Origin: Candidatus Methanospirareceae archaeon
Lineage (GTDB): Archaea; Halobacteriota; Syntropharchaeia; Alkanophagales; Methanospirareceae
Assembly: GCA_049975405.1 (NCBI GenBank)
Contig: JBNGDK010000006.1
Coordinates: 1-60,523, forward strand
Length of the DNA: 60,523 bases
Reading direction: 5' to 3'
Shown here: in pieces, positions 1 to 12,095 of the stretch
How the letters are laid out: the number at the start of each line of letters is the position of its first letter
Numbering within the stretch: position 1 is the first letter of the stretch
Notes under the pieces: model-generated
Told to the model about the DNA's origin: nothing
Seen by the model: only the letters and a program-made list of their open reading frames with translations
Database searches by the model: none
Made by a program: the position numbers and the translations under genes

Positions 1-188
1 CGAGCTGAGCGTCGAGGCAGGGCGCCGAACCAAGGAGCGCACGCCAGGATCAGGAATAGAAACGGAAGTTCAACGCCTAGACATCGAAAAAACTGATATT
101 GCTGCTCGCTAAAATCACGCGCGGGTATGAAGATAGAAGGAAGCGGTAACACTCAGAAGAAGGCATGGTCGATTCTTCACTCTGAGAT

Positions 189-1814
189 TTACACGAGCAC
201 GAGCGAGGCAGATACGTCTGCGCTCGTATCCGAGGCATCGTTCGAGACAAGCTTGATGCTCACCGCATCGCCCTGTGCCACAGCAACCTCGTGCACAGTA
301 TCTTCACCGGAGGTCGCGTTATCGAGCGTGCAGGTGATCGCCTTGTCCGCGCCGTTCACGCGGACGGTGTAAATGTCGGTGCGGCCGCCCGCGCCGGAAG
401 CTACGCGCTGCTGCACGTGCAGGTTGCGGAGAATCCCCGCACGCGGCACGCGCACGCTGATCTCGTTCGTCTGCGTGCTGCCGTTCCCGGGCGCGAGATA
501 TGAGGTGCCGTTGACGGTGATCGCGCCTAGGCACCCGAACTGCAGCAGGAGCTCGAATTGGTACGGATTGAACTGCGAAGCAGCGAACGCCGGCGTTGAG
601 CGGATCACGTGCCCACTGAGATCGCTGATGAGCGCGATCCCGCAGCCGAGGTAACTGGCATCTGCGATTGTATGCGATGCAACAACGCCGAGGTCGCTCC
701 AGGTTAGCCCGTAGTCAGTGCTCCGGAAAACGTGTTTGGTGTTGTCGCCGAGGATAACGATCCCGTTGCCGAGGTAAAGGAGGGCGTAGATATGCCCGGC
801 AGTTGCGCCGATATCAGTCCACGTGGCACCGTAATCGGTGCTCCGGAAGACATGGCCGTCGCCGTCGCCGATGAGCGCGATACCGTTACCGAGGTACACG
901 CTCGCCTGCACGAAACTGGAGGAACTCACCACGCCGAGATCGGTCCAGGTCGCGCCATAATCAGTGCTCCGGTGGATATGTGTTGTGTTTCCTGTACAGA
1001 TCGCGATCCCGTTCGTGAGGTAAGCGAGCGAGTAAACGTTGCCGGCAGTGATAACGCCGAGATCGGTCCAGGTCGCGCCATAATCAGTGGAGCGGAGGAT
1101 ATGCGTTCCCGCACCTGCTACAACGACACCGTCGCCGATGTATTCGATAGCGTAGATCGCGCCGCCTTCATCGCCAAGGTCCATATATGAGACCCCGTAA
1201 TCAGTGCTTCGGTAGATATGGCCAGTTTCGTCACCGAGTAGAACGATACCGTTGCCAGCGTGGCAGCCGGACGCGGGCGCAGAGCCGATCGCACCGAGAT
1301 CGGTCCACGTGGCACCGTAATCGGTGCTCCGGAAGACATGACCACCGAGATCAGCGAGCACTGCAGTACCATTGCCAAGCGCCACGATCGCCGATTCGTC
1401 AGTGGCGATCACGCCGAGGTCAGTCCACTGCAACCCGTAATCGGGCGTGCAGATCTCATCAACTGCGTGATGTTCCGAATGCTGCAGCACCGGTACCCGG
1501 GCATTGGCATCCAGTTTGAGCAGCTTGCTGGCGACATTGAAATCAGCAGAATTGAAATCCATGAGCGCATCCAGGTCACTCGCGGGAAACTCCGGGATGC
1601 CCAGAAGCGTACACACCTGGGCAGCTGTAAGCGCTGCAACGTTGCCGCCGGTGATGCGCCCTACCAGCCGCTGCTCGGGGATCACGAGCGCGGCAGGCGA
1701 GTTGTCCAGGATTGCAGCAAGGATAGACTGAGCATCGAAGAGCTCCTTGAGCATGACGTCGCTGGAGAGCCGTGGGAAATCGAAATTCGGTCTTTGTACC
1801 ACTCTTCTTCCCAT
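189..1814 (-). CDS. Asp-box (BNR) seven-bladed beta-propeller protein with a distinct ~136-aa C-terminal beta-rich domain; no signal peptide (virus-like receptor-binding/fibre candidate)
   Basis: ORF 189..1931. Seven ~41-43 aa units each carry xRSTDYGATWTDLG, matching the SxDxGxTW Asp-box. Start placed at the internal ATG 1814 (MGRRVV), 20 nt after the upstream stop; the alternative start 1931 would overlap the upstream ORF by 97 nt. Confidence 0.75.
   Translation of the reverse strand: MGRRVVQRPNFDFPRLSSDVMLKELFDAQSILAAILDNSPAALVIPEQRLVGRITGGNVAALTAAQVCTLLGIPEFPASDLDALMDFNSADFNVASKLLKLDANARVPVLQHSEHHAVDEICTPDYGLQWTDLGVIATDESAIVALGNGTAVLADLGGHVFRSTDYGATWTDLGAIGSAPASGCHAGNGIVLLGDETGHIYRSTDYGVSYMDLGDEGGAIYAIEYIGDGVVVAGAGTHILRSTDYGATWTDLGVITAGNVYSLAYLTNGIAICTGNTTHIHRSTDYGATWTDLGVVSSSSFVQASVYLGNGIALIGDGDGHVFRSTDYGATWTDIGATAGHIYALLYLGNGIVILGDNTKHVFRSTDYGLTWSDLGVVASHTIADASYLGCGIALISDLSGHVIRSTPAFAASQFNPYQFELLLQFGCLGAITVNGTSYLAPGNGSTQTNEISVRVPRAGILRNLHVQQRVASGAGGRTDIYTVRVNGADKAITCTLDNATSGEDTVHEVAVAQGDAVSIKLVSNDASDTSADVSASLVLV
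600..1445 (-). repeat. In-frame tandem blade repeats (period ~123-129 nt) inside the propeller gene
   Basis: Seven Asp-box units. Identical 36-mers acgccgagatcggtccaggtcgcgccataatcagtg lie at 931-966 and 1054-1089, exactly 41 codons apart. Confidence 0.9.
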
Positions 1815-1834
1815 TTTCTTCACTTGCCTTCTTA

Positions 1835-2182
1835 CTACAGCGATTTGAGATACGTCACGGTCCGCGGATCTTCCAGGATGTTCAGGCTGCGTTCGGCGGA
1901 GTACCAAAGCAATGTTGCGGAAGCGCCGCATTCAGGCAGCGAGGCGAACGCGGTGGGATCATAGATGAGACAAAGGTAAGCGGCGAGATCGGTGCAGCAC
2001 TGGCGGACGATCGCGTGCTTCACGGGATCGAACGATGCTTTGAGCGAATCGCGCATGACCGCGTCGATGGTGCCTTCTGCCTCATAGATGTTCTCCTCGA
2101 TATCGGCATCGAGGAGCCCGAGGCTGCTGACAACCTTGAGCCTCTTCTTCACGAGCGCGGTGGTGGAATATGTTACAGCCAT
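1835..2182 (-). CDS. Small helical protein (115 aa), paralogue of the 4762..5145 product; resembles the phage gp6-like head-tail connector/adaptor by eye
   Basis: N-terminal pattern TT.LVKKRL...D.DIEE.I.EAE..ID. Shares the core CTDLAAYLCLIY with CTDRCAARAIIYI of the paralogue. It sits 11 nt downstream of the preceding gene and directly upstream of a propeller gene. Confidence 0.5.
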   Translation of the reverse strand: MAVTYSTTALVKKRLKVVSSLGLLDADIEENIYEAEGTIDAVMRDSLKASFDPVKHAIVRQCCTDLAAYLCLIYDPTAFASLPECGASATLLWYSAERSLNILEDPRTVTYLKSL

Positions 2183-2193
2183 TCAGTCGTGCA

Positions 2194-2892
2194 CTATGAG
2201 CTTTCGAGCTTGATTGCGAACTGGTTATTCTCGTACCCGCTTGCAGCGGCGTCCACTATTCGTTTGATCCAGAGCCCTTTGTACTCGTTCTCCGCGATAT
2301 CGCCGAGCGACAGCCCGGTCGCTTTCGTGGTGGGCGAAGCGAACATGAGGCACACGTCAACGCCTGCCACATTAACGGCCTTTCCCTCGCCTGTGGTGCC
2401 CCCGTAATCGTCCGCGAGCGTAAGATGCGTATCGTCCGTGATCGAGAGGATGGCGGTCGCCTTGCTTTCATCGTCGTCGGTCGAGTTGTAGATGCACTCG
2501 CCCGGCGCGAGCTCGGTAAGGAAGGCGGTGCCCACGCCTACAACTGGCTGTCCGGCAACGAAGGTGGCCGTGCCGGTAAGCGCAGCGGGCGTGGAGACTT
2601 TCGATTTCGTAGCGGCACGCAGGATCTTGATTTCATCATCTGGCGAGAGCGTGAGCTGCGAGATCCATGCTACGACCGCAGCCCAGGTCTCTTCGTTCTC
2701 GTTACGGACGAAGATCTTGCGGTAATCGGTATCGCCTGCAACGCGTTCAGCGTTCGTTATGTCGTCGAAGATATTCTGCTCGATCTTGGAGAGACTGATC
2801 TCGTTTGCGAGATCGATATCGCCGCCGTGCTCATCGCCTTCGTTCCAGAATGCGCACTGGTAGACTTTCAGGTTGCTTGCATCGAAGGTCAT
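2194..2892 (-). CDS. Hypothetical protein (232 aa), no signal peptide; candidate structural protein of the cluster
   Basis: Long ORF co-directional with the cluster. ATG 2892 is preceded by the TATA-like TTCTTAAA ending 24 nt upstream on the minus strand. No motif recognised with certainty. Confidence 0.6.
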   Translation of the reverse strand: MTFDASNLKVYQCAFWNEGDEHGGDIDLANEISLSKIEQNIFDDITNAERVAGDTDYRKIFVRNENEETWAAVVAWISQLTLSPDDEIKILRAATKSKVSTPAALTGTATFVAGQPVVGVGTAFLTELAPGECIYNSTDDDESKATAILSITDDTHLTLADDYGGTTGEGKAVNVAGVDVCLMFASPTTKATGLSLGDIAENEYKGLWIKRIVDAAASGYENNQFAIKLESS

Positions 2893-2950
2893 GATGAAGG
2901 GTGGGACGCTAGTGCGTTTAAGAAGAGCTAGCTCGAAAACTCATTGGTCT

Positions 2951-3004
2951 CCTATCCCTATCCTATCCTATCCTATCCTATCCTATCCTATCCTATCCTA
3001 TCCT
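2951..3004. repeat. Pentanucleotide microsatellite (TCCTA)n, ~10 units; (TAGGA)n on the coding strand of the flanking genes
   Basis: Read directly: cctat cccta then 8 perfect tccta (2961-3000) plus tcct. Intergenic, 59-113 nt upstream of ATG 2892. Confidence 0.97.
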
Positions 3005-3073
3005 GTTTGTTATTGCCGAGCACGAGCGGCAGTCTCGTCCTAATCATCCTCCGCCGGGCGGATGCACTGCTAT

Positions 3074-4756
3074 CTAGGTGGAGGTACCCGAAGTGGTGGC
3101 AGAGACCTGCGAAGAGAACGCTCCCGCATTCCCGTCCGGATCGACCGCGCGGACCTTGAAATAATACGTGGTGTCGGTGTCCAGGTCGCGATTGCGGAAT
3201 GAGTTCGTTTGCGCGATAGCGACGAAGTTGCTTGAAGCGGGTATGAAGTCGGTCGTTGTGGAACGGTAAATCTCGAAATAATCTGCGTCCGCAGGATCGA
3301 GCGCATTCCAGTGCAGTACGACGGCGTCGGGCGCGATGAATTCCACACGCAGCCCGGAGATTGCGGTGGGCGCTAAGAGATCGTAAGAGGCAGGCACGGA
3401 CAGGCTGAACAGTTCTTCACTGATGTCATATTCGGAGCTGATCAGGAGCGTCCCGGATTCTGGTATGGGGATGTTGTAAGATGCAGGCACAACGAGGCTG
3501 AAGAGCTCCTCCGCAATATCGTAACTGGAGCCTACGAGTAGCGCGGTGAGGGTTCTGATATCGTATTCGCAGCTGACGGTTATGCTCGGCATGAACCGTT
3601 CGAGCCCGAGCTCCATGTAGATCGGGTTGCCATTGATGTACTGGATCTTGGAATTGGAAACGAGCGTGAACGATTTGTCTTTGAAGGTGAGCAATTCGTC
3701 GAGCACGAGGTTCTCTGCGGGATCGGTATAAACAACGGCATCGCCGGGCGCCAATTTGACATCGAGCAGTTGCTTCGCAGATTGTAGCGGCACGTAGATC
3801 CCTTTGAAGCTGAAGCCTGTGGAGCGCAGGATGTGGCCGTGGTTATCGCCGATGACCACGGTGCCATGCCCGAGGAAGGCCGAATCGAAGATGGGCGAGG
3901 AAGCGATGACGCCGAGATCGGACCAGGAGTGCCCGTAATCGATGCTGCGGAAGATATGCCCGCCGCCGTCTGTAACGATAACGGATCCCGATTCGAGATT
4001 GGTGAATGAGGACCCGTAGGAGCTGAGGATCTCACCGAGGTCAGTCCATGCCGCGCCGTCGTTGCTGCTCCGCCAGAGATGGCCGTCCACGCAGCAGACG
4101 AGTGCGATCCCGTTACCCAGGTACACTGCGTCTTCGATACCGCCCGCGGTGATGACGCCGAGATCGGTCCACGTGGCACCATAATCAGTACTGCGGAAGA
4201 TATGCTTCGCGGAATCGCCGATGATCGCGATGCCGCCCCCAAAGTACGCGCCGGCGTAGATGTTGCCCGTTGAGATGACCCCGAGATCGGTCCAGGTCGC
4301 GCCGTAATCGGTGCTGCGGAAGATACGGCCGGCATTATTGCCGGCGATCACGATACCGTCTCCGAGATTGAGCAGGAGGTAGAAAGCAATGCCTTGATCC
4401 CCGAGGTCGGTCCACGTGGCGCCGTAATCAGTGCTGCGGAAGATGCGGCCCGATTCGTCTGCGAGCAGCGCGATACCGTTACTGATATACGCGCCACTGG
4501 TTGCGGATAGAGTCATGATCTCGCCGAGATCGGTCCATGTGGCGCCGTAATCGGTCGTACGATAAACGTGCGAGCCGCAATGATGGTCAGCGAGGACCGC
4601 GATGCCATGACCGAGTGAGACGAGTACCTCAGCCTCGTCCCCGTCCGCCGTGATCACACCGAGGTCCGTCCACTCCAGTCCGTGATCTCCCGTAGTGAGG
4701 ATCTCAGAACCGAACTCGTAGAGGAGCGCGATGAAATCGCCTTTGTCTATGTTCAT
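3074..4756 (-). CDS. Asp-box (BNR) seven-bladed beta-propeller protein with C-terminal repeat region and fibronectin type III-like domain; no signal peptide
   Basis: 560-aa ORF. Seven units with FRSTDYGATWTDLG-type Asp-boxes. The C-terminus, LRVEF..VVLHWN..YFEIYRS...YYFKVRAVD..GN.G, is typical of FN3. Start is 5 nt after the upstream stop. Confidence 0.85.
   Translation of the reverse strand: MNIDKGDFIALLYEFGSEILTTGDHGLEWTDLGVITADGDEAEVLVSLGHGIAVLADHHCGSHVYRTTDYGATWTDLGEIMTLSATSGAYISNGIALLADESGRIFRSTDYGATWTDLGDQGIAFYLLLNLGDGIVIAGNNAGRIFRSTDYGATWTDLGVISTGNIYAGAYFGGGIAIIGDSAKHIFRSTDYGATWTDLGVITAGGIEDAVYLGNGIALVCCVDGHLWRSSNDGAAWTDLGEILSSYGSSFTNLESGSVIVTDGGGHIFRSIDYGHSWSDLGVIASSPIFDSAFLGHGTVVIGDNHGHILRSTGFSFKGIYVPLQSAKQLLDVKLAPGDAVVYTDPAENLVLDELLTFKDKSFTLVSNSKIQYINGNPIYMELGLERFMPSITVSCEYDIRTLTALLVGSSYDIAEELFSLVVPASYNIPIPESGTLLISSEYDISEELFSLSVPASYDLLAPTAISGLRVEFIAPDAVVLHWNALDPADADYFEIYRSTTTDFIPASSNFVAIAQTNSFRNRDLDTDTTYYFKVRAVDPDGNAGAFSSQVSATTSGTST
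3383..3532 (-). repeat. Tandem ~93-nt (31-codon) duplication in the C-terminal part of the propeller/FN3 gene
   Basis: Protein repeats SSYDIAEELFSLVVPASYN... and SSEYDISEELFSLSVPASYD.... The DNA units start at about 3383 and 3476. Confidence 0.7.
3818..4690 (-). repeat. In-frame tandem blade repeats inside the second propeller gene
   Basis: Seven Asp-box units. The 23-mer ccgagatcggtccaggtcgcgcc at 4281-4303 is identical to 934-956 in the other propeller gene. Confidence 0.9.
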
Positions 4757-4761
4757 TTATT

Positions 4762-5145
4762 TCATAGTGTCGATGAGCGTGGCCGTAGCCCAGGAGCGGG
4801 AGTAAGTAATACGAGCTGCTCTTCCGCGCGCGTCCAGAGTGATTGCGCGATCCGGAGCTTTGTGTATGCAGGATCGGTCTTATCGATCCGGAGCTCGTCG
4901 ATCGAGTAGTTGATGCCCGCGGACGGTACCCAGATATAGATGATGGCTCGTGCTGCGCATCTGTCCGTGCAGATAGAGCGTGCGAGCGCGTATAGAGCGT
5001 CAGCTTCAGCGAATGTCGTTTGTGCAAAGGCCTCGATATATGCCTGCTCGTCCGCGATGAGCTCGTTCAGCACATCGTCTGAGATCTCCGATGCGGTTGC
5101 CTGGATGCGATTGCGGACTCGTTCAGGAGTCGTGATAGCCACCAT
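4762..5145 (-). CDS. Small helical protein (127 aa), paralogue of the 1835..2182 product; phage gp6-like connector/adaptor resemblance
   Basis: N-terminus TTPERVRNRIQ....ISDDVLNELIADEQAYIEAF, a pattern typical of head-tail adaptor families. Its stop lies 5 nt before the propeller gene start. Confidence 0.5.
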   Translation of the reverse strand: MVAITTPERVRNRIQATASEISDDVLNELIADEQAYIEAFAQTTFAEADALYALARSICTDRCAARAIIYIWVPSAGINYSIDELRIDKTDPAYTKLRIAQSLWTRAEEQLVLLTPAPGLRPRSSTL

Positions 5146-5257
5146 GATGAAGCATTCAAGCTCAGCGCGTTTAAGGCGGCTCTTATGACGGTAATTCCAA
5201 AGCTATAAAGTACCGAATAGCGGATCCACCGCTCACTAAATGCCGCCTCGATACTAT

Positions 5258-5368
5258 TTAAAAGCCTGCAGTGGCACATGAAAAATCACAATCAAAGCCA
5301 CAAAGCTCACAAAACTTCTTCAGCTGAGCCAACAACATATGGAGATGTAGCACCTCCTCTTTTTTCAT
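5258..5368 (-). CDS. Possible leaderless small ORF (36 aa, Cys-rich C-terminus)
   Basis: Manual translation gives MKKEEVLHLHMLLAQLKKFCELCGFDCDFSCATAGF. A consensus TATA sits 24 nt upstream. The N-terminus is reminiscent of archaeal UPF0058-type small proteins, from memory only. Confidence 0.25.
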   Translation of the reverse strand: MKKEEVLHLHMLLAQLKKFCELCGFDCDFSCATAGF

Positions 5369-5392
5369 ATAAGTAATTTTCTACTTCTCCGT

Positions 5393-5400
5393 ATATAAAT
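5393..5400 (-). promoter_or_regulatory. TATA box (TTTATATA on the minus strand)
   Basis: Forward tataaa(t) context gtatataaat. Lies 24 nt upstream of ATG 5368, spacing that fits a leaderless archaeal transcript. Confidence 0.35.
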
Positions 5401-5650
5401 ACGTTCATAGAAGTACATGCAAGGATGTCGCTGTCGCTTAAAGGACAGATATGCTCAACGTTGAACAATTTATCGCCGTGTGAGCTCTATCAATGCACAT
5501 CCCTGAACATGGTCGGCGCCACTGAATAGGCCCCAACGATGCTTTCGTCGGGCTCCAGCTAATACGCACGCTCGCCGTTTGATGATGTATATCCCGGTAG
5601 GTGTTGAAGGCGATCTTTATGATCTTTAGTTCGCGCCTTTTTGTGCCTAT

Positions 5651-6538
5651 CTACACCATCCCCAACCCCTTCAGTACCGCGCGCAACTTCTCCACGTTGC
5701 TCTCGCTTAGCGGCGCAAGCGGCAGCCGCACGTTACCAGCAGGCAGCCCCATCAGCTCCGCCGCCTTCTTTACCGGTATGGGGTTGGTCTCCAGAAACAT
5801 CGCGTCAAAAAGCGGATAGAGCCTGAGGGAAATCTCCTGGGCTTTATCGAGGTCGCTACTGGCCATTGCGGTTACCATCGCGCTCATCGCTTTCGGTACG
5901 ATATTCGCCGCGACGGAGATCACGCCCTTGCCGCCCAGACTCATGATCGGTAGCGTAAGGAAATCGTCACCGGCCATCACGCTGTAATCCAGCCCTTGCT
6001 CCGCAGCCATCTGGATGATCGTGCCGACCTGCTTCAGATCGCCCGAGGCCTCCTTTACCGCCTTCAGGTTCGGCACCTCAGCTGCAAGCTCGATCTGCGT
6101 TTGGGCACTGATGTTCTGGCCCGTACGCGAGGGGATATTGTAGAGAATGAGGGGGATATCAACCGCATCGCCAATTCGCTTGAAATGTGCCTTCAAGCCC
6201 TTCACGTTCGGTTTATTGTAATAGGGGGTGATGAGCAAACAGGCAGCCGCACCGACGTCTGCAGCGTGCTTCGTGAGCTCGACCGCCTCGTGCGTGTTGT
6301 TCGAACCGGTGCCAGCAATCACGGGTACCGTCGCCGCATCAATCACCACTTCGATCACGTTCTTATGCTCTTCATGCGAAAGCGTTGCTGATTCGCCGGT
6401 CGTGCCACAGGGAACGATGCCCGAAACACCACCCTCGATCGTAAACTCCACAAGCCGCCGTAAGCCGCCCTCGTCTATGCTATCCGTCTTCGTAAACGGG
6501 GTGATAAGCGCAGGATACACTCCCTCTATCTTCAACAT
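5651..6538 (-). CDS. dapA: 4-hydroxy-tetrahydrodipicolinate synthase
   Basis: GVYPALITPF...GIVPCGTTGESATLSHEEH and full-length DapA/DHDPS-like sequence. Confidence 0.9.
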   Translation of the reverse strand: MLKIEGVYPALITPFTKTDSIDEGGLRRLVEFTIEGGVSGIVPCGTTGESATLSHEEHKNVIEVVIDAATVPVIAGTGSNNTHEAVELTKHAADVGAAACLLITPYYNKPNVKGLKAHFKRIGDAVDIPLILYNIPSRTGQNISAQTQIELAAEVPNLKAVKEASGDLKQVGTIIQMAAEQGLDYSVMAGDDFLTLPIMSLGGKGVISVAANIVPKAMSAMVTAMASSDLDKAQEISLRLYPLFDAMFLETNPIPVKKAAELMGLPAGNVRLPLAPLSESNVEKLRAVLKGLGMV

Positions 6539-6545
6539 CGCGCTC

Positions 6546-6740
6546 TTACTCCACTTTACTCTCTTTTACTTTCTTATGCGTTATATATCCTGCTACTCTG
6601 TTCCGCACCGCTTTGCTGCCGATGTTGGTGTACTGCTCAACAAGCTGTTTATTAAGCTCAAAATCGGCGGTGAAGTCGGGCACTTGTTTCAGCAATTGCT
6701 TTGCCAGACTCTTGATATAGGTTGGTTTTATCGCTCCCAC
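6546..6740 (-). CDS. rps17e: 30S ribosomal protein S17e
   Basis: MGAIKPTYIKSLAKQLL...FELNKQLVEQYT...RNRVAGYIT matches the archaeal eS17 pattern. Confidence 0.9.
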   Translation of the reverse strand: MGAIKPTYIKSLAKQLLKQVPDFTADFELNKQLVEQYTNIGSKAVRNRVAGYITHKKVKESKVE

Positions 6741-6745
6741 TGCGT

Positions 6746-6976
6746 TTATTCACTCCCTTCTTCGCTGCTCTCTGCTTCCCAGTTCTCGAACTCCTCGCTC
6801 TTCTCACGCATCGCAGTCACACCGATCATCACCAATAACGCGCCGAAAAAGAGCACTACCAACGGAATAAAACCCAAAAGAACGCCCAAAACCTCGTCAA
6901 GGAAATACCAGATCCCCACCAGACCGAAGGCGGTCAGGACCAGCCCAACAAGAAGCTCGCGAAATCCCCCTTTCAT
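6746..6976 (-). CDS. Small membrane protein (76 aa, two TM helices, acidic tail)
   Basis: Internal ATG 6976 (MKGGFRELLVGLVL...) avoids overlap with rps15. Two hydrophobic segments. Confidence 0.5.
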   Translation of the reverse strand: MKGGFRELLVGLVLTAFGLVGIWYFLDEVLGVLLGFIPLVVLFFGALLVMIGVTAMREKSEEFENWEAESSEEGSE

Positions 6977-6995
6977 GTCATGCTCGCTCCTCTCA

Positions 6996-7466
6996 TTACC
7001 CCCGCATGAGTACCTCGGCGGTCTCTGGCTTATATTTCCAATCCGCGGGCAGGACTTTCGCACGTCGATAATACTTCGCCAGTCGCCGGATCTTGGATTC
7101 TGTGAGCTGTAAAGCGCGCTTATTGTGAATATCCCGTTTGTTTATATCGAGATGCTTTCGGATTCGCAGCGCTTTCCGCATCAAGTTCTGGATATCCTCG
7201 GGAAGCTTACTTGCGCGCTCTTGCTCCTTCAAAATGCTCGTTATCCGCTTCCCTGTTACCAGCGGAACACTGGGCACACTATAGTTATCTCGTAATCGAA
7301 TGCCAATCTCGCTCGATGAGAGTCCCTGATTGCGGAACTCAACCACCTTACTCTCAACCTCCTCTGAACTCAGCTCGACCCAATCAGGTGCCTCCTGCTT
7401 GAGCCGCATGCTGAACGGTCGCTTCGAGCCCGATCTTCCTCGCCTCCGCGCGTATATCCGTGCCAT
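6996..7466 (-). CDS. rps15: 30S ribosomal protein S15 (uS15/S13e type)
   Basis: MARIYARRRGRSGSKRP...SEIGIRLRD...LESKIRRLAKYY. Start set at ATG 7466. Confidence 0.9.
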   Translation of the reverse strand: MARIYARRRGRSGSKRPFSMRLKQEAPDWVELSSEEVESKVVEFRNQGLSSSEIGIRLRDNYSVPSVPLVTGKRITSILKEQERASKLPEDIQNLMRKALRIRKHLDINKRDIHNKRALQLTESKIRRLAKYYRRAKVLPADWKYKPETAEVLMRG

Positions 7467-7515
7467 GTTCCCTCTCTGAAAGCCTCTGCCCAAACTTTGC
7501 TTAGTTTACTTTACG

Positions 7516-8754
7516 CTACCGCGTATATAAATATTTCACGAGGCTGCGTGCCATCAGCGGGAGGAGCTGAGGATGCCGTATCAGCCCGCGCAGGGCGAGC
7601 AAAGGATAATCCATATCGCCCTTCGCATGTATCCGCTCGATGAGCTCGCTTTCCGAGATCGTTCGTATGAGCGTATCGTAATCCGTATCATTCATCGCGC
7701 ACCGTAATCGGTGCACCATGAGGCCAAACGCAATTTCTCGTCCGATTTCACAACGCCAGCGGCGCTCGTAATCGTGCAGTACGGACATATCGCCCGTCAC
7801 ACATGCCTGCGCCGCCTGCTCACCCGCCAGTTTCCCGCAGCGCAGACCGTAGTAAACGCCACCGCCGGTGATCGGCTTTATCTGGGCCGCGGCATCGCCA
7901 ACAAGGAGTACGCCCGAACCATGCGTGACCTGCGTCGTCTTGCTTCTCATTCTCCTATTCAGCGGGAGCGGGATAGCGCCCGCGGAACGATGATATATCT
8001 CACCACCGAATTTTTGCGCTAGCACACGATGCTCTGCCAGGTCCCGCTTCAAGAACGCTAACGGCCTGGTTTGCGAGGAGTACTCCCGGTCAATGCAGAG
8101 TCCAATGCGTGCTCGCCGACGGGTGCCGAGTGGAATGGCCCAGGCAAAGAAGCCGGGTGCAACGTCTTTGCCCACAAAAATCTCCGCGTAATCCGATTCT
8201 GCCTCGTACTCGCCTTCAATTTGCGCACAACTCAGGCAGCGCTGTGTAGTCCTGAGCCCCGCCGATCGCGCCACGGTGCTTCGCATGCCATCTGCCCCAA
8301 TCACCACGCGCGCAGTTATCTTCCGTGTGGCGTTCGGCAGTTCTGTGGCAATCGTGAGCTCGCATCCCTCCTCTCCGATTCGAACCGCTTTCGCTTTGCA
8401 CCTCAGCAGGAGCTCCACGCCTGCTTTCACCGCCTCATTCGCCAATTCCTGGTCAAAGAGGTCGCGACGAACAGCGAATGCGCGTTGTCTTGGCGACTCG
8501 AGCAGTAGCTCGTGGGAGGGCGAGTATATGATCGCGCCCTTTATCTCCCGGCTGATGCACCGTTCAGGACGTTGCAATTCGCTCTCAGCCAGTGCTCGCG
8601 TGCTGAGGAGCCCTGCACAGTGAACCGGCTCACCGATGATCGCGTGCTCCTCGAGCAACAGGGTAGACACGCCAGCCTTTGCCGCGTATCTCGCGGCCAT
8701 GCAGCCCGCAGGACCACCACCGACCACCACCACATCGTAAGTGCCTCTCTCCAT
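7516..8754 (-). CDS. Geranylgeranyl reductase family FAD-dependent oxidoreductase (paralogue)
   Basis: YDVVVVGGGPAGCMAARYAAKAG Rossmann motif. GDAAAQIKPITGGGVYYG is typical of the GGR family. Confidence 0.8.
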   Translation of the reverse strand: MERGTYDVVVVGGGPAGCMAARYAAKAGVSTLLLEEHAIIGEPVHCAGLLSTRALAESELQRPERCISREIKGAIIYSPSHELLLESPRQRAFAVRRDLFDQELANEAVKAGVELLLRCKAKAVRIGEEGCELTIATELPNATRKITARVVIGADGMRSTVARSAGLRTTQRCLSCAQIEGEYEAESDYAEIFVGKDVAPGFFAWAIPLGTRRRARIGLCIDREYSSQTRPLAFLKRDLAEHRVLAQKFGGEIYHRSAGAIPLPLNRRMRSKTTQVTHGSGVLLVGDAAAQIKPITGGGVYYGLRCGKLAGEQAAQACVTGDMSVLHDYERRWRCEIGREIAFGLMVHRLRCAMNDTDYDTLIRTISESELIERIHAKGDMDYPLLALRGLIRHPQLLPLMARSLVKYLYTR

Positions 8755-8928
8755 GCCCGATCTCCGATTCTTTTGACCCGGAGTAGCTTCTGTATTAGAT
8801 CACGCACTCCCGGGAGTATCTGCCATGTGCGCCTTTTAAGCTTTTAAGCGAGAAAGCGAAAAAGGTTATAGGAGCAGATTACAGTAAGTAGCGTAACCTG
8901 CACAAGCGAGGCGAAACGTGAGCTAAAA

Positions 8929-9300
8929 ATGAAGAAGGCAATCGAGCTATCCCGGCAGCCGCGAAAACAGCGTAAGGTACGATTCAATGCACCCCTGCAT
9001 ACGCGCCACAAGTTTCTGAGCGCACCGCTGTCCGCAGAGCTTCAGGGTAAATACGGGCGTAGAAATTTACCGGTACGAAAGGGAGATACCGTGCGCCTGA
9101 TGCGCGGTGACGCCAAGGGCAAAGAGGGCAAGGTTCGGTCCGTGAGCTTGAAGAAGGGGCTGCTCACGATGGAAGGCGTTGTGGTGGCGCGTTCTGATTT
9201 GTCTGAGGTCCCGCGGCCCGTCCATCCTTCTAATATCGTAATCACGAAGTTAGAACTGAAGGATAAGCTCCGTGAGCTCGCCTTGAAGCGGCAGGGCTAG
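8929..9300 (+). CDS. rpl24: 50S ribosomal protein L24 (uL24, KOW domain)
   Basis: QPRKQRK..FNAPLH.R.K.LSAPLS.EL..KYG.R.LPVRKGD.V...RGD.KG.EGKV...HPSNIVITKL. Confidence 0.85.
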   Translation: MKKAIELSRQPRKQRKVRFNAPLHTRHKFLSAPLSAELQGKYGRRNLPVRKGDTVRLMRGDAKGKEGKVRSVSLKKGLLTMEGVVVARSDLSEVPRPVHPSNIVITKLELKDKLRELALKRQG

Positions 9301-9344
9301 CGGAAGGAAGGAAGCAGGTAGCTGAAATTCGCTCCCTCACAGGG

Positions 9345-9866
9345 CTATGATTCAAGCATTAGCTCGTTATGGAGTGCGAGCATCCGCTTGATAGAAGGGT
9401 GGGATTCGCCCAATTCTGCCTTGAAATCCGCGATCGCCGCGTCTATGCTCGTTCGCTTCCAGCCAACGATTAAATTGTCCGCATGGGCAACGATCTTCTC
9501 TTCCAGCGTCTCAGGGAGAAAATCACGAGCTGGTAAGCCCAGCATCTCGGCTTCCGCTGCCGTCAGTCCAGCACCAATATGCCGCTCGATGATACGTACG
9601 ATCTCTTCATTCAGCCCTAATGCACGCGCCATCGCGCCACCAACAACGCCATGATCGATACCGTGCGAGCGCGCTCTGCCCAGATCATGGAGCAATGCGC
9701 CCTTGAATACCAAACGCTCATCCACCGCCTCATGATGACGACGCGCAAACTCCAGCGCGAGGTCGGCAACAGCATTACAATGCCTGATCACGCCATCGTC
9801 GCAGCCAGCTGCTCGAAGTACCCGATTGCACTCGCGTCTTAATTCCGCTTCAGTCTCCGCTTCCAC
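9345..9866 (-). CDS. HD/HDIG-domain phosphohydrolase
   Basis: ALLHDLGR...HG..GA...IIERHIGAG motifs. Confidence 0.75.
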   Translation of the reverse strand: MEAETEAELRRECNRVLRAAGCDDGVIRHCNAVADLALEFARRHHEAVDERLVFKGALLHDLGRARSHGIDHGVVGGAMARALGLNEEIVRIIERHIGAGLTAAEAEMLGLPARDFLPETLEEKIVAHADNLIVGWKRTSIDAAIADFKAELGESHPSIKRMLALHNELMLES

Positions 9867-10348
9867 TTCCTTAACTCGGTGATCTCTTGCTCTATCTCTT
9901 TCACGATCTCGCTGTTATCGAAATATTCGAAATTAGCTTCACATTCCTCGCACCAGAATTCCTTCTCTGCGGCCTCTTCAAATAACACACGCTGACACTG
10001 GCACCGGTAGAACTCGCCATTCTGCTCGTAGTTGAGGCTCTTCTCCAACCGAGCCAGCTCGCCGTCCGCTTCCTCCTCCATCATCCGCTTGATGTTCTGG
10101 TGATTGAAACGCCACCAGTAAGTAATCCAGCCGGTGTTGTCATCGCGCTCAGTCCGGTACTCTGCGATCCTGCTCTCATACAGCAGGTATAAAATCTTAC
10201 GTACCGACGTTAGTTTCGTCTCGCTGAGCTGGGCGATTTCCTCATCTGTGATCTCCTCCTCCGGGATAGTTTCCAGGATCCTCAAGCCATCTTCGCCAAT
10301 GATTCTCCCGAAGTATTCCCTCACCAAAGGATTATCTGCCGCCAACAT
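9839..10348 (-). CDS. tfe: Transcription factor E (TFE alpha; winged helix plus Zn ribbon)
   Basis: N-terminal wHTH (TDEEIAQLSETKLTSVRKILYLLYE), W..YWWRF, and Cys pairs C.C...C..C. Confidence 0.8.
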   Translation of the reverse strand: MLAADNPLVREYFGRIIGEDGLRILETIPEEEITDEEIAQLSETKLTSVRKILYLLYESRIAEYRTERDDNTGWITYWWRFNHQNIKRMMEEEADGELARLEKSLNYEQNGEFYRCQCQRVLFEEAAEKEFWCEECEANFEYFDNSEIVKEIEQEITELRKWKRRLKRN

Positions 10349-10557
10349 AATGATCGATCTCCACTGATACGTATAACCTGAGAGAAGATTAACCTTTCTG
10401 CTCTCTCACGTTGCAGTGAGCTATGTAAGATCGGAGGAGCTGGTCGAGCCAGACCCGCTCGACCGTTTTCGCGCAGCAAACATGTCCCGCTCAGCGGGCC
10501 TCGGGTGGTTTTTCACGTTCCCCCCGTGTGAATGGTCCGAAGCCCGCAGTCGCGCAC

Positions 10558-11343
10558 TTATCCCTCAATCCTCAGGAACTTCTCGCGTATCTCCTGCCCT
10601 TTCTCGATGCCGAGCTCGATCATCGCTTCGATCTGCTCTTGTTTCAAGCCGCCATTGCCGCTCTTCTGTAAGCCTGAGAGTGTGCCATCGGCATTCGAGA
10701 TGACGGTGAGCTTGCTCGATGCTGCATTCTCCTCGTATAGAGAGGGATCAACGAGGAAATTCCCGCCGACCTCGATGATGCTCACGGCGACCGGCGTTTC
10801 ACGTGGCGAAAGCACATTATCCCCGGGCAAGCCGTAGCGCTCGGTCGGAATGCGGAGCTTCAAGAGCGAAGCAATTGCACCTAACGCAGCCGCGTCGATG
10901 AGATTCCCATCGTTATCCAGGATGTGGATATCGATGAAGGTCATCCAGACCTTCTCGCCTGGTTCAATACATAACTTCTCCAAATCGAGCGCTTCTGAGC
11001 CTCGAATTCCTCGATCCACTATCCGGGCCAGCTCGATACTGTTCTCGTCCGGCGGTCCCGGTTCGAAGTCGGGCGACGCGCCCGGTCGAAGTTCCGCGTT
11101 CGTCATGATGACCCCCAGATTCGGGGTGTCCGGGAAGGGCTCGCCGAGCTCGACTTTCACGCCCACCAGAACTGCGGTGTCGCCGATCTTCACCAGCGCA
11201 GAGCCTTCTGCCTTCTCGATCGTGTCGCGCTCCACGATGATCTCGCGGTAATCCAGGAATCCCCGGCCATCTATCCGCTTCCCGCTATCAATCAAATCAT
11301 ATACGTAATCCTTCCGGAGATCTTCCATAACCTCAAATCCCAT
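10558..11343 (-). CDS. rrp42: Exosome complex component Rrp42
   Basis: RNase PH-like sequence. Sits in the conserved rrp4-rrp41-rrp42 order. Confidence 0.9.
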   Translation of the reverse strand: MGFEVMEDLRKDYVYDLIDSGKRIDGRGFLDYREIIVERDTIEKAEGSALVKIGDTAVLVGVKVELGEPFPDTPNLGVIMTNAELRPGASPDFEPGPPDENSIELARIVDRGIRGSEALDLEKLCIEPGEKVWMTFIDIHILDNDGNLIDAAALGAIASLLKLRIPTERYGLPGDNVLSPRETPVAVSIIEVGGNFLVDPSLYEENAASSKLTVISNADGTLSGLQKSGNGGLKQEQIEAMIELGIEKGQEIREKFLRIEG

Positions 11344-11345
11344 TG

Positions 11346-12095
11346 TTATTCCTCACCTAGCTCCACACTCGCACTATATTTATCAAGCAATGCCGCTCGC
11401 TGCAATTCGTAGATCTGATGACAGCCCTGCTTCGCCAGTTCCATACCGCGTTTGAATTCATCCTCCGTGAACCGGCCATCCATCTGGAGCATGGTTATCG
11501 TGTCCGTTCGTGCGACCATCGCTATCGGCATGTCAGCCTCGCCGAAGTTGTCCTCCTTCGCGCTCAAATCGAGCACGACCTCGCCTTCTACCTTACCCAC
11601 GGCAACTGAGGAGACGATATCGCGCATCGGTATGCCTGCAGCAGCGAGCGCGACCGAAGCGGCATTGATGCCCGCTGTTCTCGTTCCCGCATCCGATTGG
11701 AGCAGCTCAACATAGACGTCGATCGCTGTCTTCGGATAATATTCCTTGATAATGACCGGATCCAGGGCCTCTCGGCTCACCTTTGAGATCTCTACGCTCC
11801 TGCGATCAGGGCCGGGGCGCTTGCGATCGTCCACCGAGAACGGTGCCATATTATAGCGGTAGGTAACGACGGCCATCTTGGCGTCCTGAAAGTGCCGCGG
11901 ATGCATCTCGCGTGGTCCGAACACCGCAGCAATCGCTTTATTATTCCCCAACTGGAAATAGCAGGAGCCATCTGCCCGCTTCAAAACACCTACTTCGATC
12001 TTTATCGGTCTCAGTTCATCAAATCCGCGACCATCCAATCTTTTCCCATCCTTTATCAACTCTATCTCTTCGTTCTTCATTACTCTTCTTATCAC
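11346..12095 (-). CDS. rrp41: Exosome complex exonuclease Rrp41
   Basis: [22 protein letters not shown]...GTRTAGI RNase PH motifs. Confidence 0.9.

Follow-up and report, generated by a model that had tools for sequence, protein, structure and literature searches.

A probable provirus remnant of the ANMV-1 group, with an intact tail-fibre operon, beside dapA in an ANME-1-type archaeon

Neither ANME-1 archaea nor their viruses have been cultured, and how these viruses recognise their hosts can be seen only in genome fragments. The window considered here (the whole stretch of DNA analysed: 60,523 nucleotides of contig JBNGDK010000006.1, from an ANME-1/Methanophagales-like host lineage) has at its very edge five co-directional minus-strand genes, two of which encode Asp-box propeller proteins. 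A preliminary description took this cluster for the host-recognition module of a tailed archaeal virus or for a domesticated tail-like particle, and placed the rest of the element beyond position 1. What is the cluster, and what became of the remainder?

Comparison with related loci suggests a probable answer: the five genes form the intact operon for the tail fibres, and hence for host recognition, of a temperate, tailed ANMV-1-group virus that integrated into an ANME-1/'Methanomicrobia' chromosome and has since been truncated. Viral origin is favoured because homologues and gene order are shared with complete viruses. A remnant is favoured because the side on which relatives carry their head genes here holds deletion debris, and then dapA. 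The window holds a provirus fragment only, and the kind of thing it represents is fairly ordinary.

The operon

All five open reading frames lie tightly packed where the preliminary description put them; only one length is amended. The first gene (4762-5145, minus strand, as are all that follow) encodes small127, a 127-residue helical protein and candidate adaptor-like protein of the gp6/gp15 head-tail type. Next is the gene for fibre A (3074-4756; 560 residues), which comprises a short N-terminal anchor, a seven-bladed Asp-box propeller (approximately residues 20-315), a repeat region, and a C-terminal fn3 domain. A variable spacer (2893-3073), with a (TCCTA)n microsatellite at about 2951-3009 (repeat family D7), precedes the gene for p232 (2194-2892), a conserved, all-beta, putative virion-associated protein of 232 residues. 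Then come small115 (1835-2182), a 115-residue helical paralogue of small127 without the hairpin, and fibre B (189-1814; 541 residues from M40), which comprises a conserved N-terminal anchor, a seven-bladed Asp-box propeller, and a beta-rich C-terminal domain of about 135 residues.

The longest reading frame for fibre B spans 189-1931 and encodes 580 residues. The start at M40 is most likely, because an 88%-identical homologue in the related locus L030 is called from the same start; this choice also abolishes the overlap with the small115 gene. The spacer between the fibre A and p232 genes is filled in L030 by an 84-residue SHOCT gene, and metagenome contigs skip or substitute this stretch (joints 2896 to 3087/3090).

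The five genes are all intact and under purifying selection (dN/dS 0.07-0.28 across all five; dS 0.3-2.3). As first reported, none of the five proteins contains a signal-like or TM-like hydrophobic stretch (Kyte-Doolittle mean over 19 residues at most 1.43), which is the expectation for virion proteins. Ordinary Sec-exported surface lectins were considered and rejected, since the corrected starts give no signal peptides.

Fibres and p232

The propeller regions of fibres A and B are paralogous, as proposed (53% identity over 307 residues, E = 2e-96), and each contains seven Asp-box-like motifs about 40 residues apart. By their sequence both qualify as Asp-box propellers, a class marked by repeated S-x-D-x-G-x-T-W motifs in six to eight blades. 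Pfam searches return BNR_6 and Sortilin-Vps10 (E = 1e-13 to 1e-16; BNR_6 at 7.5e-15 and 2.2e-14), and fibre B matches the phage family phrog_8700 (4e-17). The two C-terminal domains had been described as FN3-like and beta-rich. The former stands, as an fn3 domain in fibre A (residues 465-552, Pfam E = 2.9e-6); the latter, in fibre B, matches no family.

Fibre A matches, through its N-terminus and residues 294-555, the fibres that follow small127 in L001, L004, L005, and L035, which are without a propeller. It is also 83% identical to the first 460 residues of a 714-residue protein in L031. The fibre B anchor (residues 58-161 of the 580-residue frame) is 44% identical to a 259-residue protein that follows p232 in L002/L003.

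For p232, 65 homologues were found; locus searches give 33 among the viral contigs of IMG/VR and 116 among metagenomes, in agreement with the viral origin first proposed. The protein matches phrog_13135 (4e-10), and one segment of it (residues 104-174) resembles the N-terminal ends of proteins in tail fibre families. Its AF2 model (pLDDT 90.2) is a predicted beta-sandwich. This high-confidence model yields no significant fold match against the PDB with Foldseek; a sequence search of the PDB returns only 'distal tail protein gp20' (E = 0.003-0.03), and tblastn against the phage collection returns no match.

The small helical proteins

Sequence comparison suggests a weak but reproducible paralogy between small127 and small115, in line with the preliminary description. 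The two are 28% identical over 72 residues (pairwise E = 6e-4), and small115 also matches the 127-residue family member of virus L002 (E = 1.9e-4). A predicted beta-hairpin segment is missing from small115. Predictions for the family also show a conserved, extended C-terminal tail.

There are 75 homologues of small127. Its AF2 model (pLDDT 76.5) has the order helix, helix, helix, beta-hairpin, helix. Foldseek with this model finds no significant fold match in the PDB (E at least 2). In BFVD it finds one unnamed match, probably an ANMV-1 protein (TM 0.72, E = 1.6e-5); the entries named 'head-tail adaptor' are non-significant only. A sequence search of the PDB with the family yields nothing meaningful, and neither small127 nor small115 has a Pfam match at E of 1 or below, or a PHROG match. 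The connector family PF05135 is matched weakly by 4 of 105 family representatives (4 of 50, best E 2.7e-4; then 0 of 55), and an hhalign comparison of the family with the single HK97 gp6 sequence was uninformative (probability 0.05%).

Gene position also bears on function. In L001, L002, L005, L035, and L036, the small127 homologue stands right at the boundary, behind the head block and ahead of the fibres. In the window and the relatives compared, small115 is always directly upstream of a variable receptor-binding gene: a propeller gene in the window, L030, L031, and L042; a NosD beta-helix gene in L002. Predicted topology and gene position both fit a gp6-like adaptor, but the profile and fold comparisons do not bear this out; small127 is a candidate for that role only.

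Relatives among complete viruses

All five proteins, or their anchor domains, recur with their order kept in metagenomic viral genomes of 30-47 kb. The order small127, fibre, p232, small115-like is found in L001 (46.6 kb), L002 (39.6 kb), L005, L035, and L036. These contigs also encode a prohead protease (DUF2213), a major capsid protein of HK97 type (PF09950/PF05065, phrog_264), a portal protein (PF06381), and an integrase. Head genes lie directly upstream of the small127 gene; the integrase follows the fibres in L001, L035, L042, and L044, and adjoins tRNA-Asn in L042. Homologues beside capsid, portal, protease, and integrase genes thus bear out the first part of the preliminary description, a host-recognition module of a tailed archaeal virus. 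The second part, a domesticated tail-like particle, was rejected, whether as a tailocin, PLTS, or eCIS: there are no tube, sheath, baseplate, or spike genes among the five proteins or the scanned neighbours in relatives.

ANMV-1 belongs to the tailed viruses of anaerobic methanotrophic archaea and diversifies its tail-fibre protein AdtA through a DGR (GenBank KP703175; Paul et al. 2015, Nat Commun 6:6585, PMC4372165). Its presumed hosts are methane-oxidising ANME archaea. The capsid proteins of the related viruses are 58-84% identical to that of ANMV-1, and the portal 77%; L002 and L035, which have all five window families, carry capsid, protease, and portal genes of ANMV-1 type. Likewise, small127 finds ANMV-1 AJP62067 in the phage collection (30% identity, E = 2e-7). 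The ANMV-1 counterparts of small115 are AJP62068 (47% identity) and, in its C-terminal part, AJP62059, a 'capsid tail fiber' (38%). In ANMV-1 one small115-type copy forms a fusion with a fibre fragment, encoded upstream of AdtA, the DGR target.

The tie between a small protein and a receptor-binding gene, reported from the window alone, thereby recurs in L030, L031, L042, L002, and ANMV-1 for the small115 type. It had been thought to mark a possibly novel system; it is instead conserved among ANMV-1-like viruses and not peculiar to this locus.

These likenesses suggest how the products might act. In the virus, small127 would be a connector-type protein, small and helical, that is made where head and tail meet. 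Through their conserved N-terminal anchor domains, fibres A and B would attach and offer host-envelope glycans their Asp-box propellers, along with the fn3 or the beta-rich C-terminal domain. The p232 protein would be a beta-sandwich virion protein travelling with the fibre genes. Presumably small115, as a diverged paralogue of small127, is a docking adaptor or assembly helper for the next receptor-binding protein. We infer these individual roles, glycan binding by the propellers included.

The truncated flank

Upstream of small127, where relatives have head genes, the window has 500 bp of gene remnants, followed by dapA of the host. First among the remnants is a truncated UPF0058 gene (5258-5368, minus strand; 36 codons), element cargo that is now a remnant; it is 80% identical over 30 residues to an intact 72-residue UPF0058 upstream of the cluster in L031 and L153. 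An 18-nt remnant of tRNA-Thr follows (5427-5444, minus strand; the L031 tRNA-Thr is at 1002-1075), within an alignment of window 5444-5279 with L031 1058-1229. The last piece, 79 nt from the 3' end of a NosD-like beta-helix gene (5489-5567, minus strand), is the truncation point of the element; it aligns at 80% with L031 544-622, where the L031 gene at 1-621 ends.

Taken as a whole, the spacer 5146-5650 corresponds to L031 544-1840 with deletions, which have removed both HTH genes, and the window's 1.3-kb upstream flank has two internal deletions and one truncation. Positions 1-5650 of the window carry none of the hallmark genes of a Caudoviricetes provirus (HK97-fold capsid, portal, large terminase), the window has no integrase gene either, and no tRNA gene was found at 1-12000. 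The UPF0058/HTH/tRNA-Thr flank was also considered as a host integration site and rejected: the host lineage has its own UPF0058 copy in a core-gene context, between the ProRS and DHBP synthase genes.

A junction stretch of 87 nt (5568-5654), present only in this contig, separates the debris from dapA; it matches none of the related loci compared. From dapA onward, host synteny is kept with 93% nucleotide identity to L022-L027, and likeness to L022 ends exactly at the dapA stop, 5655. The close host relative (L022-L027) has GmrSD_N and HEPN defence genes at this site in place of the cluster. The site shows presence/absence polymorphism against conserved host synteny. The cluster itself is therefore not in fixed chromosomal synteny, an arrangement that the preliminary description had held to argue against a virus.

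Alternative readings

An intact operon beside a heavily rearranged flank, together with an integrase-only copy in L042, is no better explained by passive decay than by a cassette that is retained or autonomous. The operon could be a capsid-less, integrase-linked element of about 6 kb, or an exapted operon, with its adaptor-like proteins, p232, and two fibres kept for their own sake; we regard this as unlikely. Such a cassette could behave like a satellite, donating alternative receptor-binding proteins to helper viruses of the ANMV-1 type, or be of use to the host (for example in receptor masking, or in adhesion after lysis).

L042 carries the same five genes, then two small ORFs, the integrase, tRNA-Asn, and host TYW3, and its host-type rhamnose-synthesis genes begin within about 100 bp upstream of small127, so that the block sits between host-type genes. 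However, no att duplicate of at least 10 nt and no att copy of the tRNA-Asn region were found in L042, so its left boundary may be a deletion. No head gene was found near the block in L031 (13.7 kb), L029, L043, or L153, but in L031 and L153 the element runs upstream into a beta-helix gene and then off the contig, and head genes may lie further. The five window genes stayed intact under purifying selection while the 1.3-kb upstream flank decayed; yet the low dN/dS may date from time spent in active viruses. Nor was any replication or regulatory hijacking gene seen, and we know of no phage satellite that encodes only fibres.

In its most specific form this idea is a fibre-only unit without capsid genes, kept by ANME-1-type archaea or moving with an integrase as a mini-element of about 6 kb, as in L042, that supplies alternative Asp-box receptor-binding proteins, each paired with a small docking protein of its own, to incoming ANMV-1-like viruses or serves the cell. 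We consider it quite improbable. If it is true, the window copy, in losing both HTH regulator genes, would have taken a step towards constitutive expression.

A second alternative concerns the other side. The preliminary description placed the rest of the element beyond position 1, and the cluster could then belong to a complete provirus of unusual gene order, with head and replication genes off the contig. The contig does end 188 nt beyond the operon. Within that end, a conserved 3' flank (126-188) extends to about 126, where likeness to related copies stops: over 2931-126 the window shares 87% identity with L030 1598-4395, and 170-126 matches L029 350-395. Further out, a 38-nt sequence (39-77) resembles one that lies 40-80 nt past the 5' end of the L001 integrase gene (32/38 nt identical to L001 17648-17685, with a weaker match at the corresponding position in L035); relative to the fibre genes, it points the other way from its L001 counterpart. 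This sequence is possibly att-related. No direct repeats flank the cluster in the window, and because the contig ends so soon after the operon, att sites cannot demonstrate integration.

Against a complete provirus, every related complete virus has its head genes upstream of small127, which is the dapA side here, and its integrase after the fibres; the truncated genes in the window's upstream flank indicate deletion; and L030, 87% identical, continues after the operon with a secreted 127-residue protein and a DUF3303-like gene, without viral genes. A complete provirus is thus very unlikely, and the original placement of the remainder does not hold. At most, the integrase or att end would lie beyond position 1.

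Finally, an assembly or binning chimera, in which a viral contig end was joined to a host contig at about 5570-5650, is hardly credible. In its favour, the 87-nt junction stretch matches nothing else, the cluster is at the contig edge, and the same samples contain both related viruses and related hosts. Against it, the viral side consists of deletion remnants collinear with L031 instead of a natural genome end, which an assembler would not create, and GC content is continuous across the junction. Public runs gave only short fragments from related organisms (word share 0.05), which speak neither for the junction nor against it.

A truncated ANMV-1-group provirus is therefore the preferred reading. 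Together with its relatives, the locus illustrates that ANMV-1-like fibres combine a conserved anchor with interchangeable distal domains (Asp-box propeller, beta-helix, DGR-diversified lectin); that a small connector-like family is duplicated and tied to each receptor-binding gene; and that a fibre operon can outlive the remainder of its provirus. If the operon is not kept or mobilised alone, it is a useful but ordinary provirus remnant. If it is, it represents a new kind of capsid-less viral derivative in archaea.

Comparison with known systems

The closest known system is ANMV-1, in which homologues of the small proteins occupy the same tail-fibre region. There are differences: no p232 homologue is detectable in ANMV-1, which also lacks an Asp-box propeller; its receptor-binding protein has a DGR-targeted C-type lectin fold, whereas the window fibres are propellers; and the window copy is chromosomal, without head, replication, or DGR genes.

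The HK97 gp6, SPP1 gp15, and P22 gp4 adaptor family (PF05135, Phage_connect_1) resembles small127 in size and N-terminal pattern, and in the predicted topology of three helices, a beta-hairpin, and a helix, with the conserved, extended C-terminal tail. Placement between head and tail genes is shared by the small127 homologues of complete relatives. Unlike gp6-type adaptors, the proteins described here occur as at least two paralogues per genome, one of them hairpin-less.

The propellers share seven Asp-boxes with a period of about 40 residues with phage endosialidase/sialidase-type and Sortilin-Vps10-type propellers. In contrast, no full-length model of GH33 type scores over its Pfam threshold (BNR_2, 20.3 bits; cut-off 31.4). 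The blades are also unusually uniform, being near-identical repeats.

Tail-fibre and tailspike modules are exchanged in Caudoviricetes, and defective (cryptic) prophages retain tail-fibre genes. As in such exchange, the fibres of this group keep a conserved N-terminal anchor and swap distal domains (propeller, NosD beta-helix, fn3 repeats, C-type lectin); here, however, a small helical gene stands before each fibre, not a chaperone gene after it. As in cryptic prophages, the truncated element adjoins host genes in a variable island. What sets it apart from these is that the intact part is exactly one operon.

Two Paralogous Gene Pairs

Five co-directional genes occupy the minus strand at the contig edge: small127 (127 aa, 4762-5145), fibre A (560 aa, 3074-4756), p232 (232 aa, 2194-2892), small115 (115 aa, 1835-2182), and fibre B (541 aa, 189-1814). 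Fibre B most likely starts at M40, because the start is so called in its 88%-identical homologue in L030, another copy of the block. The preliminary description of these genes is confirmed as a whole: all five open reading frames were found as described; the propeller proteins are paralogous (53% identity over a shared 307 aa), as are the small proteins (28% over 72 aa, E=6e-4); the FN3-like C-terminus of one propeller protein is a Pfam fn3 domain, which ends fibre A; and none of the five proteins contains a signal peptide or transmembrane segment. Each propeller protein carries seven Asp-box-like motifs at a spacing of about 40 aa, and both match Pfam BNR_6 and Sortilin-Vps10. Small115 also matches the L002 virus protein of the 127-aa family, and a stretch of about 25 aa, the predicted beta-hairpin of small127, is missing from it.

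Blade-length repeats (120-123 nt; 600-1450 and 3830-4690) lie within and across both propeller genes. The fibre A propeller, present in the window and in the related copy L031, is absent from the fibre A genes of L042 (a further copy) and of complete viruses; it was probably copied from fibre B. The fibre A/p232 spacer contains a (TCCTA)n microsatellite (2951-3009) and varies among relatives: in L030 it is taken up by an 84-aa SHOCT gene, and in metagenome contigs the stretch is replaced.

Relatives in Tailed Viruses

In PHROGs, p232 matches phage families as well as tail-fibre N-termini; the matches of the fn3 portion of fibre A are to tail fibre families, and those of both propellers to phrog_8700. 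Metagenomes yielded 65 homologues of p232, and the long contigs among these are tailed-virus genomes; a p232 profile retrieved 33 viral contigs from IMG/VR and 116 loci from metagenomes, and also matched loci in Methanosarcinales and Methanoregulaceae MAGs. The viral genomes L001 (46.6 kb), L002 (39.6 kb), and L035 (31 kb) and the viral contig L036 all encode a DUF2213 prohead protease, an HK97-type capsid protein, a portal, and an integrase; L002 adds a DGR-type reverse transcriptase. The order small127, fibre, p232 recurs in L001, L004, L005, L035, and L036, with a fibre that has counterparts of both terminal parts of fibre A and no propeller. A small115-type gene directly follows p232 in L035 and L036, and the N-terminal fibre B anchor has a match in the protein right after p232 in L002. 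The cluster is of viral origin; we favor, with reasonable confidence, reading it as the host-recognition operon of an ANMV-1-like virus within a truncated provirus.

In L002 (7209-9953), a fibre gene, a small115-type gene, and the gene for a NosD beta-helix protein are inverted relative to small127 and p232; this fibre cassette may be invertible or may have been rearranged.

Roles of the Smaller Proteins

In the AF2 model of small127 (pLDDT 76.5), one short and two long helices are followed by a beta-hairpin, a further helix, and an extended C-terminus that is conserved; SPP1 gp15 and HK97 gp6 have this topology. Its gene position in complete viruses is consistent with an adaptor; sequence and fold searches gave no confirmation of this assignment. 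Small115-type genes always directly precede a receptor-binding gene, whose fold varies; this supports, by association, a candidate docking or assembly role. The AF2 model of p232 is all-beta and confident (pLDDT 90.2), and solved structures give no significant relative. Some viral contigs (L087, 9048-10462; L088, 879-2300) have short p232-type genes (about 155 aa, middle domain absent) directly behind the capsid gene, so p232 could be head-associated instead of tail-associated.

Truncation Beside dapA

The preliminary interpretation stands as to a virus-derived host-recognition operon, but not as to the rest of the virus lying beyond position 1. Every complete relative has its head genes immediately upstream of small127 and an integrase after the fibre genes. 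Upstream of small127 in the window is the dapA side; there the head genes are expected, and there debris is found. At most an integrase or att end would lie past position 1; a 38-nt match (39-77) to sequence adjoining the L001 integrase gene is in opposite orientation.

The 500-bp spacer between small127 and dapA (5146-5650) is a deleted copy of a flank intact in L031 and L153, where the order is beta-helix gene, HTH gene, tRNA-Thr, UPF0058, HTH gene, small127. Of this flank, the window retains no more than the final 79 nt of the beta-helix gene, an 18-nt piece of the tRNA, 30 UPF0058 codons, and the promoter region of small127. This head-side debris shows that the window copy is truncated there. 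The UPF0058 copy is cargo of the element, since a separate UPF0058 of the host lineage lies between its ProRS and DHBP synthase genes.

From dapA onward, host synteny continues at 93% nucleotide identity with contigs L022-L027 from a close relative of the host. Similarity ends exactly at the dapA stop codon, after which the relative carries the defence genes GmrSD_N and HEPN; this makes the site a variable island rather than one of conserved synteny. In L022 (11225-13244), and likewise in L023-L027, a GmrSD_N (DUF262) gene and a HEPN RiboL-PSP gene follow dapA; the region behind dapA therefore has the appearance of a hotspot for mobile and defence DNA.

L031 itself contains repeats. Direct repeats of about 365 nt (93% identical; 647-1014 and 1450-1815), each spanning an HTH gene plus the final 13 nt of tRNA-Thr, bracket tRNA-Thr and UPF0058; L029 has a single hybrid HTH gene, as expected from recombination between such copies. 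Elsewhere in L031, 130-nt direct repeats of the propeller gene 3' end (87% identical; 7021-7150 and 10484-10613) bracket MJ0565, FeoB, and two FeoA genes, which points to insertion of cellular iron-transport genes into the element, or to their capture by it.

Debris or Retained Cassette

The window, L030, L031, L042, and L043 all have the five genes intact, with pairwise dN/dS of 0.07-0.28 at dS 0.3-2.3. The L042 block is bordered at one end by host-type genes for rhamnose synthesis; at its other end come two small ORFs, an integrase, tRNA-Asn, and TYW3. Head genes are absent between the block and the flanking host-type genes, and a search of L042 for an att duplicate found none. Intact genes under low dN/dS, together with the L042 context, thus make a capsid-less fibre cassette, retained or mobile, a possible though less likely reading. 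In L031 and L153, the element reaches the contig end upstream.

Comparison with ANMV-1

Among described viruses, ANMV-1 (KP703175) is the nearest; it has been described as infecting anaerobic methanotrophic archaea and as having a DGR by which a tail-fibre ligand-binding protein is diversified (PMC4372165). In clusters of at least 90% identity, the window host carries the label 'Methanomicrobia archaeon', and homologues of the UPF0058 gene near the cluster carry the names Methanospirareceae, Methanophagales, and ANME-1.

Two ANMV-1 annotations can be read anew: the 'MutT-like phage hydrolase' gene (1913-3193) is 77% identical to the L002 portal (PF06381), and 'capsid tail fiber' AJP62059 (32161-32742) is a fibre fragment fused to a small115-type domain.

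In a tblastn search of a phage collection, small127 matched ANMV-1 across its full length. ANMV-1 contains two small115-type sequences, one of which, embedded in the annotated 'capsid tail fiber' gene, lies upstream of adtA, the target of the DGR. Its capsid protein (58-84%), protease (34-57%), and portal (77%) are identical to their L035 and L002 counterparts at the levels given.
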